Assembly: GCF_057098645.1 (NCBI RefSeq)
Contig: NZ_CM169472.1
Strand: one strand, 5' to 3'
DNA: 64,000 nucleotides
This document shows, one piece after another, positions 12,001 to 15,000 of the stretch. Numbering within the stretch: position 1 is the stretch's first letter; each line of letters opens with the position of its first letter. The position numbers were made by a program.

Positions 12001-15000
12001 AACGCCTGGCGACTGCATTGATTACGACCGGATCAGAGATGACATCATGCAGGACGCGGAGAAATTTAATATCAGGCTGGTGGGCTTTGATACGTGGAAC
12101 GCCACGCATCTCAGAACGCAATTACAGGGGGCAGGTTTTGAGGTGGAGCCGTTCCCGCAAACCTACCTCAGATTCAGTCCGGCGGCGAAATCGTTCGAAG
12201 TTTTTGTTAACCGCAGGGTGATTGTGCATCGTGGCGATCCGGTGTTGTCCTGGTCGATGAGTAACGTCGTGATGCAGAGTGACGCGAACGCCAATATCAA
12301 GCCGAACAAGAAAAAATCACCGAACAAGATAGACCCGAGCGTGGCGGCGCTGATGGCGTTTGGTACATTCCAGGCAGAGCATGAGGATTTTGCTTTTGAT
12401 ATAAGCGACAGCCACCGCCAGAAACTGGAAGAATTTAGCGGGGTGTAATGAGGTCAGCAGCATGACAGAAGCCGAAATAACGGGATTAATCCGCCGCGTT
12501 GCCGGAATCAGCCAGCAGGCTGACGAACAGGCCACGCAGCCGGACAGCGTGACAGCCGAAAACTATGCGCGTGTTGTTGCTGAGGTGATGCGCCGTGATG
12601 GTATAGAACTTAATGGCGTGGATATGCGCAACATACGAACCAGAGTTCTTTAGTTGCTGGCCTACCGTCGCCGCGTGGAGATGTATCGGGAGAAGGAGAA
12701 AATAACGTACCACTGGAAGAAGCCGGAGCGGTTGCGGCGGTAACTGGTTGATATTCCCGACGGCCCAAAAATGGGTTGGCTACACCCCTCACAACTACGA
12801 CATTTTCGCAGTTTAATTAATGGTCAGCTTAATCGCTAACCCGCTGATATTTTAGGAAACCTCAATTTGAGGAAGTCGGCGCGGTAACTTGCTGAACTTT
12901 AAGCAAAGCGCAAAATTGCGCTTGCTGAATAATCATTATGATTACGCAGATGATTAAGGAATGACCGAAGGCGGAAATTCGCCTGTGGTTAATGGGGGAG
13001 TTGCAGATCTGCAACTCGACCATGAAACTACGGAAACTACCCGTAGTTTGGGTAGTAAGAGTAACACCCAGATTTTGGGGCTTACTCGTGATACCCAAAT
13101 TTGGGGTATCGGTGGCAACCATAACGACTTTCGTTACGGTTGATGCTTTTACCCCATTGGGGGAAAGGTATTACGATAATCATAACACCTACCGAACAGG
13201 TAAAGCCCACCAGCCTGATTAACGTTTAACCGGAAAAAAATTCCGGTAGGTGGGGATCCCCATATAGACATTAACGCCCCTCATGAATTGGTGTGCTTCC
13301 CCCTGGAAAGATGATCCGCCTGTATATTTCTTGTGTCTATTTGTTCCACGTTGTTTCATACAGTGCACCGAACGGTGTAGTCACTGGTGTAGTCATTTTG
13401 CGATTTTTGGCACTTTTTGTGGTGTTAATTATTTAATTAAATCAATGTGTTATGCGAAATAAGTTATATATAACAGCAATAAATAATGCGAGAATAAACG
13501 GCACGATGATCTCGGCGGCAAAACGGATACCGCAGAGAATAATGACCAGCATTCCCAACATAATGACGATTTTTAGGCCATTGAGCGTGATGATCGGCTT
13601 TGCCATGCTTGTCCCCGTTTTTTCTTCCTTTGCTAATAATAATGTCTTTTTCGCTCCGTCATCATAACGAAAATCAAACCGCTCAGGTAAAGAAGTGAAA
13701 ATATTTTGAGTTAATTCTTAAGCTATGATACAAATCAGGCGTGTTCAACTACCGAGGACAATTATCATCCGCGATGACGAGAAGCAACACTGCGGATAAT
13801 TGTAATATTATGGACAATTTGTTCAGGACGTTATTTTCTACATTTACCCATCTTCGTACCTCATCCACTATCTTGCTCGTAGGTGAGCAGCACTGGCGCA
13901 ACGCGCTTTAGTCCTTTCTTCTGCCAAAGCTTGCGCTAAGCGCGGGGCTTGACCACTTTACTTTGGTTTCGCTGAATTAAGCGAAAATTAAAATAATTCT
14001 CTTGCAGGAGAAGGACAATGTATATTTATTGGATTTTATTAGGTCTGGCTATTGCTACAGAAATTACCGGTACGCTGTCCATGAAATGGGCGAGCGTCAG
14101 TGAGGGAAATGGCGGTTTTATTTTAATGCTGGTGATGATTTCTCTGTCGTATATATTTCTCTCTTTCGCCGTTAAAAAAATCGCCTTAGGCGTAGCTTAT
14201 GCGCTGTGGGAAGGTATCGGTATTTTATTTATTACCTTGTTTAGCGTTTTGTTATTCGACGAAAGTTTATCGCTGATGAAAATTGCCGGGTTAACCACCC
14301 TGGTCGCCGGGATTGTGTTGATAAAATCAGGTACCCGTAAAGCGCGTAAACCTGAACTGGAGGTGAACCATGGCACAGTTTGAATGGGTTCACGCCGCCT
14401 GGCTGGCATTGGCAATCGTGCTGGAAATCGTTGCTAACGTCTTTTTGAAATTTTCTGACGGCTTTCGTCGCAAAATATTTGGCTTGCTCTCCCTGGCGGC
14501 GGTGCTGGCTGCCTTTAGTGCGCTTTCTCAGGCCGTTAAAGGGATCGACTTGTCTGTCGCTTATGCATTGTGGGGCGGGTTTGGTATTGCCGCCACGTTA
14601 GCCGCAGGTTGGATCTTGTTTGGTCAACGGTTAAATCGTAAAGGCTGGATTGGCCTGGTCTTGCTGTTGGCTGGAATGATCATGGTGAAACTTGCCTGAT
14701 GAAGACGCTGCCCGCGCTGTCGGGCAGCGTTTGAACATTATTTTTGCGACAGTTGATCCAGCTTGTCGCGAAAACCGGTAACAGAAATGGCCCGGTTATC
14801 GGCGCGCCAGCGATCTTTCGCGGCAGGAGCCGAACTTTGCACCCCAATTAATTGCCAGCCGTCATCGGTATGCAACATCAGAGGCGAACCGCTGTCACCC
14901 GGCAAGGTATCGCACTGATGTGACATCACCGACGTTTGCGCCCAGCCAGTCACTTCACAGTTTTGATGACTGTACAACGTATCGAGATGATCTTCAGGGT

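Follow-up and report, generated by a model that had tools for sequence, protein, structure and literature searches.

What has become of tqsA, the gene for an exporter of autoinducer-2 (AI-2), at a locus where a mobile island abuts mdtJ? The DNA analysed here, which we refer to as the window, is a stretch of 64,000 nucleotides from one strand of contig NZ_CM169472.1 in the NCBI RefSeq assembly GCF_057098645.1. An initial annotation had placed the end of an island in the 5′ coding region of tqsA rather than in a tRNA gene, leaving about 46 codons beside mdtJ in a minus-strand open reading frame (ORF) that starts at 13606, diverges from TqsA at about 13470 and stops at 13442. All of these positions prove to be correct, and we are confident that this ORF is what remains of the promoter-proximal part of tqsA, at the right junction (attR) of an approximately 14-kb capsid-forming phage-inducible chromosomal island (cf-PICI) of the EcCIEDL933/Sp7 family. 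The island is also a recombinant between two sister types, one found in tqsA (T-type) and the other at phoQ (P-type), a finding that is new and of modest interest. The argument turns on the following features:

13442–13606, minus strand: tqsA 5′ stub ORF, comprising TqsA residues 1–46, eight island-encoded residues and a stop, from alignment to K-12 tqsA
13470–13478, no strand: attachment core ATAACAGCA (TGCTGTTAT on the tqsA strand; tqsA nucleotides 129–137), from alignment of attB, attR and attL
13374–13395, plus strand: putative arm-type tandem repeat of the tqsA-site (T) type, two copies of GGTGTAGTCA arranged GGTGTAGTCA-CT-GGTGTAGTCA
13741–14383, plus strand: ydgV and mdtJ, unaltered chromosomal flank collinear with the native order
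4907–4933, no strand: visible crossover interval, P-like to the left and T-like to the right, from comparison with islands L004 and L053

With tqsA of the K-12-derived genome L002 as the K-12 reference, tqsA nucleotides 1–137 (45 codons and 2 nucleotides) align to window positions 13606–13470 at 100% identity, which upholds the earlier assignment of the ORF to the TqsA N-terminus. Beyond nucleotide 137 all positions mismatch, and the protein match reaches residue 46 because codon 46 still encodes Ile past the junction. The product is 54 residues long, with an island-encoded tail, YNLFRITH, and its stop is the TAA at 13442. An exact match of 137 nucleotides in the correct genomic context cannot be due to chance. 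Of a full-length TqsA/AI-2E transporter (PF01594), which has H1–H4, TMH5–6 and two hairpins, residues 1–46 alone are encoded here. To the right of the stub the native order ydgV, mdtJ, mdtI, ydgD, asr is preserved. When a 721-nucleotide query spanning the junction is used, homology to the E. coli chromosome begins at window position 13470 (query position 171) in 5,422 of 5,426 complete genomes, and the full query, island side included, is matched in 245 complete E. coli genomes. ARAGORN finds no tRNA gene anywhere in the 64-kb window, in keeping with an insertion at codon 46 of tqsA and not in a tRNA gene. A promoter and terminator scan around the stub gave no signal above that of shuffled sequences.

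The 9-bp core TGCTGTTAT is common to attB in K-12, attR in the window and attL in L001, a related tqsA-site island of strain 2013C-4991; the duplication of the core that had been anticipated is thus located, with one copy at attR in the window and the other at attL in related genomes. The tandem pair of GGTGTAGTCA lies 75 bp inside attR and recurs beside the integrase gene (int) at attL of T-site islands, an arrangement typical of the arm-type sites of integrases that have an arm-binding domain (PF13356 together with PF00589). We propose that a P4-like tyrosine integrase with such a domain recombined an attP sharing the 9 bp with codons 43–46 of tqsA. The gene would thereby be split, with the 5′ 137 nucleotides staying by mdtJ, where they now encode the 54-residue peptide, and the 3′ portion of about 900 nucleotides displaced by about 14 kb, behind an in-frame TGA TAA and without a start codon from the island.

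Relatives provide further insight into the left junction. At attL of all 16 tqsA-site islands collected, the sequence in the tqsA frame reads TGA TAA AAT GCT GTT ATT CTT, with the TGA TAA pair two codons before the junction. The ATG at attL (aaaATGctg) was considered as a restart for tqsA and is ruled out, being 2 nucleotides out of frame. With that ATG out of frame, the island does not provide the 3′ part of tqsA with a start codon, and Met54 is the earliest ATG in the tqsA frame of that fragment. The fragment is open through its natural stop in the ten loci (10/10) that reach that far, and in L001 a 14.6-kb element separates a 906-nucleotide tqsA 3′ fragment (“missing N-terminus”) from a 144-nucleotide 5′ stub. 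tqsA is not rebuilt at the left junction of the related tqsA-site islands. The earlier claim that tqsA is split unless the left junction rebuilds it therefore holds for 16 of 16 relatives, but is less secure for the window itself, as the left junction of the hybrid may not be a tqsA attL.

The best remaining product would be a protein initiated at Met54, without H1 and nearly all of H2. In the TqsA structure determined by cryo-electron microscopy, H1 (Thr7–Phe29) makes contacts that hold the pentamer together and H2 extends from Ala31 to Trp57 (PMC9475539). A product lacking H1 and most of H2 would therefore be inactive as an exporter, and we infer, on what we regard as good grounds, that TqsA function is lost. 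Deletion of tqsA is reported to raise intracellular AI-2, biofilm formation, motility and lsr expression (PMC9475539). The initial annotation had AI-2 export disrupted; the inactivation of one AI-2 exporter is well supported, but the statement goes too far, as E. coli has three TqsA paralogues (YdiK, YhhT and PerM).

A full-length tqsA query finds 5,675 places in 5,422 records of the 5,426 complete E. coli genomes, with at most two per genome. The excess of places over records corresponds to approximately 253 genomes with a split tqsA and none with a spare copy; the intact tqsA elsewhere against which the initial annotation had cautioned is thus not seen in any complete genome. A satellite that splits tqsA in about 4.5% of complete E. 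coli genomes, or roughly one in twenty, would be a common natural source of variation in quorum sensing.

The island occupies positions 1–13469 of the window (13.47 kb), and by inference about 0.9 kb more lies to the left, complete relatives being 14.2–14.6 kb. Its contents are:

1–515, plus strand: C-terminal 40% of a tyrosine integrase (int nucleotides 716–1230), phoQ-site (P) type, 100% identical to int of Sakai Sp7
880–1068, plus strand: alpA, excisionase/PICI activator (phrog_2790; PF05930), 100% amino acid identity to Sp7
1126–2487, no strand: left accessory module (Icd-like, YlcI/YnfO, small ORFs), found in this exact form only in roxA-flanked islands, 9/9 contigs
2980–3279, plus strand: DUF4222 gene, replication module
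3276–4676, plus strand: RepA-type helicase/primase, replication module
5126–5536, plus strand: single-stranded DNA-binding protein (SSB)
5547–5819, plus strand: PerC-family regulator
6108–7265, plus strand: HK97-type major capsid protein, PHROG match
7305–7877, plus strand: prohead protease, PHROG match
7879–9090, plus strand: portal, PHROG match
9087–9425, plus strand: head closure, PHROG match
9422–9718, plus strand: head-tail adaptor, PHROG match
9718–10158, plus strand: HNH endonuclease, PHROG match
10447–10803, plus strand: TerS (P27 family), PHROG match
10787–12448, plus strand: TerL, PHROG match
12462–12653, plus strand: 63-residue ORF left by a nonsense codon in a conserved 93-residue island gene (12462–12743)

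The island falls within the 10–15 kb expected of a cf-PICI, has int and alpA at its left end followed by a replication module, and continues with capsid, protease, portal and connectors and then hnh-terS-terL, in the order published for EcCIEDL933. The HK97-type head module (6108–9718) is 96–99.5% identical in amino acid sequence to that of Sp7, and the packaging proteins overall 96–100%. No tail or lysis genes are present: all ORFs of at least 70 residues in 1–13469 are accounted for, and none matches a tail or lysis family. By every feature testable in sequence the island is a cf-PICI. Elements of this class are further characterized by helper-phage induction, by transfer in small capsids of their own fitted with helper tails, and by an attachment site that prophages never occupy. 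The 23 tqsA-site occupants that we inspected, a subset of the approximately 253 split-tqsA genomes, are all PICI-like (23/23).

Several further observations concern the contents of the island. A 389-residue ORF at 1126–2295 has no family match, overlaps minus-strand genes for a YlcI/YnfO-family protein and a 61-residue protein, and ends Icd-like; it is probably a spurious read-through, though gene callers report it in nine assemblies. The nonsense truncation of the 93-residue gene downstream of TerL is also called in the same-lineage island L037/L056. The right arm contains about 800 bp of non-coding DNA in which Rfam recognizes no known RNA. Within it are a 19-nucleotide near-perfect palindrome and a 33-nucleotide imperfect inverted repeat (76% complementary), at 12989–13026 and 13038–13108, which might serve in binding or be related to packaging. 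Identical alleles of SSB, portal and TerL recur in islands at four chromosomal sites, including roxA-phoQ (L009–L017), cspD-clpS (L024) and a position near thiamine kinase genes (L052/L054), and at phoQ also in classical PICIs with lambda-type capsid-E/decoration/Nu1 modules, which have an identical SSB and a similar int. This sharing of alleles across sites and PICI classes points to what would be extensive module shuffling among E. coli satellites.

The islands used for comparison were collected through exact-protein look-ups (including RepA, the major capsid protein, TerL, the 389-residue ORF, SSB and portal, although SSB and portal proved unspecific for relatives of this island), and they resolve into two sister types. 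The int genes of 10 T-site and 13 P-site islands are separated by 64 fixed nucleotide differences, which cluster in the first 170 nucleotides, encoding the arm-binding domain, and then at 385–600 and 735–867; T-site int genes in the variants examined are T-type at 60–64 of these 64 diagnostic sites. The arm repeat is GGTGTAGTCAC in the T type and GGTGTAGTTAA in the P type. The T core, TGCTGTTAT, lies inside tqsA, and the P core, GGACATATTT, overlaps the phoQ stop codon, so that phoQ is unharmed. The type of int agrees with the left flank for all 41 other int genes (41/41), and in each of the 32 complete islands the two flanks match (32/32). Sister integrases that are 91% identical, one with a harmless target at phoQ and the other with a disruptive target at tqsA, would be a natural pair for mapping the residues that determine core and arm specificity.

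The window island combines the two types. Its int is P-type at 11 of the 11 diagnostic positions covered (of 64), and its attR is T-type in both arm repeat and core. In base-by-base comparison, window positions 1–4933 show 0 mismatches to the P-site island L004, and positions 4907–22448 show 4 mismatches to the T-site island L053, two in the island and two in 9 kb of chromosome; with so few differences, L053 must be of the same host lineage as the window. Positions 1–2486 show 176 mismatches and an unalignable kilobase when compared with L036/L037, which are also of this lineage, and the int C-terminus and AlpA are only 97–98% identical to those of the tqsA-site island L001. A single crossover is visible in the window island, at 4907–4933, and among the islands compared the window is the only one in which the types of int and attR disagree. 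No relatives of the hybrid occur in the collection searched by exact-protein look-up, and no complete RefSeq E. coli genome matches window positions 1–3300 above 96%. From the window start to 4933, a stretch that takes in the catalytic portion of int together with alpA and RepA, the island is thus identical to the phoQ-site sister type, and from 4907 to attR it matches a tqsA-site island of the host lineage. Because a P-type part of int stands beside a T-type attR, the integrase is, in its visible part, non-cognate to that attR, whatever the left flank is. Precise excision that heals tqsA appears doubtful for the hybrid, and the island may have lost its mobility. Exchange of modules between island types can thus break the pairing of int and att and, depending on the left flank, the hybrid may mark a large inversion.

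Three points weigh against this picture of a split tqsA beside a mismatched integrase. The left junction of this genome lies outside the window, and the failure to rebuild tqsA is demonstrated in relatives only. The visible part of int contains just two fixed amino acid differences (C248 and S259), and a chimeric integrase could work on tqsA sites. Arm repeats are also not strictly bound to type: two roxA-phoQ islands with P-type int (L030 and L034) have a T-type arm repeat (GGTGTAGTCACTGGTGTAGTCA) at attR, near 17625, and the type of the arm site is therefore not strictly tied to that of the integrase.

With phoQ-site-type sequence in the visible part of int and throughout the left 4.9 kb, this genome need not have a tqsA attL at its left junction, and the left flank, outside the window, could be roxA, through an inversion or a misassembly, or the 3′ part of tqsA, through a conversion patch. 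The explanation that survives best, to which we give an even chance, is that a resident tqsA-site island received phoQ-type sequence in its left part, from inside int or the attL arm to about 4906, when gene conversion or a double crossover exchanged that part with DNA of an incoming or co-resident island. The left flank would then still be tqsA-3′/pntB, the integrase would be chimeric, and no chromosomal rearrangement would be required. Exchange on this scale is seen in other islands. The int of L036/L037 (locus 3340–4569), which is T-type and from the host lineage of the window, has a patch of about 200 nucleotides (221–425) identical to the P type, so that gene conversion between island types extends into int; L019 switches type directly after int, the two phoQ-site islands mentioned above carry the T-type arm repeat, and the islands in general are mosaic at a scale of 250–500 bp. 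Such a patch does, however, require a second crossover in the approximately 900 bp that precede the window, a stretch over which the types share only 91–93% identity, and none of the 41 other islands has a comparably chimeric or mismatched integrase.

A possible but less probable route is a crossover between co-resident, oppositely oriented phoQ and tqsA cf-PICIs, with inversion of the roughly 0.5 Mb between the two sites. In this model roxA-pepT would lie to the left of the window and the 3′ part of tqsA far off beside a reciprocal hybrid, with both islands att-mismatched and locked in place. The model needs only the one crossover that is visible, and the exact left module of the window has roxA to its left in nine of nine contigs. 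Five of these nine (L043–L047, short-read drafts) end about 190–320 bp past the 389-residue ORF, equivalent to window positions of about 2487–2611. The P and T types cease to differ at this point, which suggests two islands in those genomes. In the K-12 gene order the islands at the two sites are oppositely oriented, so the product of a crossover would be an inversion that places roxA on the left side of the window. In O157:H7 records, however, the two islands are apparently co-oriented; the route depends on the backbone outside the window. A synthetic query of roxA, island and mdtJ finds the roxA-island-tqsA5′-mdtJ arrangement in 0 of 5,426 complete genomes, the same-lineage L036, L037 and L053 carry an unbroken island in contigs of about 406 kb, which suggests that there is no twin in those genomes, and in K-12 the inversion would be asymmetric about dif. 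If it did take place, it would span the terminus over several hundred kb, neither satellite could leave and the split of tqsA would be permanent; this would be a case of phage satellites acting as mobile inverted repeats that rearrange the chromosome and become trapped in the process.

We consider it unlikely that the hybrid is an artefact of assembly, in which both islands are present and a wrong path through their near-identical repeat of about 8–11 kb joined the phoQ-left end to the tqsA-right end. Draft assemblies do break exactly at the boundary of this repeat, the join falls within a stretch common to both island types, and the arrangement is found in no other genome. On the other hand, a contiguous 64-kb window suggests long-read or finished sequence, which would normally span 10 kb, and the crossover adjoins a divergent patch instead of lying inside the longest identical stretch. 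The chromosomal backbone at 13470–38400 reaches no more than 99.2% identity over 25 kb with any of the 5,426 complete RefSeq E. coli genomes, and finished genomes thus represent the host lineage poorly; the same backbone is essentially identical to the draft assemblies L036, L037 and L053.

More doubtful still is regulated gene integrity, in which excision of the island, triggered by a helper phage or by stress, would reversibly restore tqsA and AI-2 export. Mageeney et al. (2020) list tqsA as a candidate for such regulation, both halves of tqsA are undamaged in all relatives, and the 9-bp core would permit scarless repair. The target domain is disrupted and left unrestored by the TGA TAA at attL (16/16 relatives, the attL of this genome being outside the window), and several independent integrations by a tight integrase clade are apparent, as 245 genomes share the junction and the island variants differ. 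Undamaged halves are, however, equally expected from recent insertions, and the mismatch of int and att in the window speaks against ready excision. Hardly tenable, finally, is the idea that the stub is a short tqsA duplication carried on the island with an intact tqsA elsewhere, since the stub still has the native tqsA promoter region, ydgV and mdtJ beside it in collinear order, complete genomes never hold more than two pieces of tqsA, and the 3′ piece begins exactly at the core (query positions 129–1035). We thus retain the reading of a tqsA remnant at attR of a recombinant cf-PICI.

At the other end of the window are genes of the AI-2 uptake operon, which had been described as intact:

59439–60197: tam, complete, far above the NCBIfam cut-off
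60254–60544: lsrG, complete, assigned by position and length
60568–61443: lsrF, complete, far above the NCBIfam cut-off
61470–62492: lsrB, complete, far above the NCBIfam cut-off
62504–63496: lsrD, complete, far above the NCBIfam cut-off

The description is accurate for lsrG, lsrF, lsrB and lsrD, but lsrC is incomplete, as the window ends within it, and lsrA, lsrR and lsrK lie beyond. Elsewhere in the window, the Hfq-binding small RNA STnc560 (44105–44318, 280 bits) is the sole Rfam family at gathering score. The ynfF and ynfE genes (24540–29450) are both intact, at 808 residues; their counterparts in the related genome L001 carry frameshifts or interruptions. ynfE is another integrative-element target named by Mageeney et al. 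(2020).

Disruption of tqsA by integrative elements is already known and common, and the satellite family of the island has been described before. Bobay et al. (2013, PMC3603311) include tqsA among genes disrupted by prophage-like elements, and Mageeney et al. (2020) map islands of 11, 15 and 16 kb in E. coli tqsA (Eco33.11.tqsA, Eco557.15.tqsA and Eco282.16.tqsA). These elements resemble the window island in target gene and in belonging to an 11–16 kb class scored as domain-disrupting; they differ in that, as far as the text consulted shows, they are not termed cf-PICIs and in that their int and att modules match, whereas the int part in the window is non-cognate. A search of a literature collection found no paper pairing “tqsA” with “phage-inducible chromosomal”, and the cf-PICI label for tqsA islands may be unstated in print, though both halves are known. 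What is added here is the precise core and arm sites, the non-rebuilding of tqsA in relatives, the pair of sister integrases with different targets, and the P/T recombinant.

The Listeria comK prophage and the Bacillus sigK skin element, examples of active lysogeny or regulated gene integrity, likewise split a coding sequence by site-specific insertion and leave the halves intact. The window element differs from these in being a phage satellite whose excision is helper-dependent via AlpA. Classical E. coli PICIs of the EcCICFT073 type share the int-alpA-rep backbone but hijack helper capsids, whereas the HK97-type head and the terminase of the window island are encoded by the island itself.

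The closest likeness is to EcCIEDL933, the prototype capsid-forming PICI (15.4 kb), which has int-alpA-rep together with capsid, protease, portal, connectors, hnh, terS and terL, lacks tails, and is induced via alpA by the helper phages HK106 and HK446 (bioRxiv 10.1101/2022.09.08.507074). Sakai Sp7 is a prophage-like element of 15.46 kb between roxA and phoQ, and from the fit of size and gene list and the equal match in an EDL933 record it would be the same element as EcCIEDL933. The window island shares with it the gene order int, alpA, DUF4222, rep, SSB, PerC, capsid, protease, portal, connectors, HNH, TerS, TerL, and matches Sp7 at 100% identity in the int C-terminus and in AlpA. The primase is a different one, however, as is the right arm at 12.5–13.1 kb, and Sp7 sits harmlessly at the 3′ end of phoQ, whereas the right end of the window island lies in codons 43–46 of tqsA.

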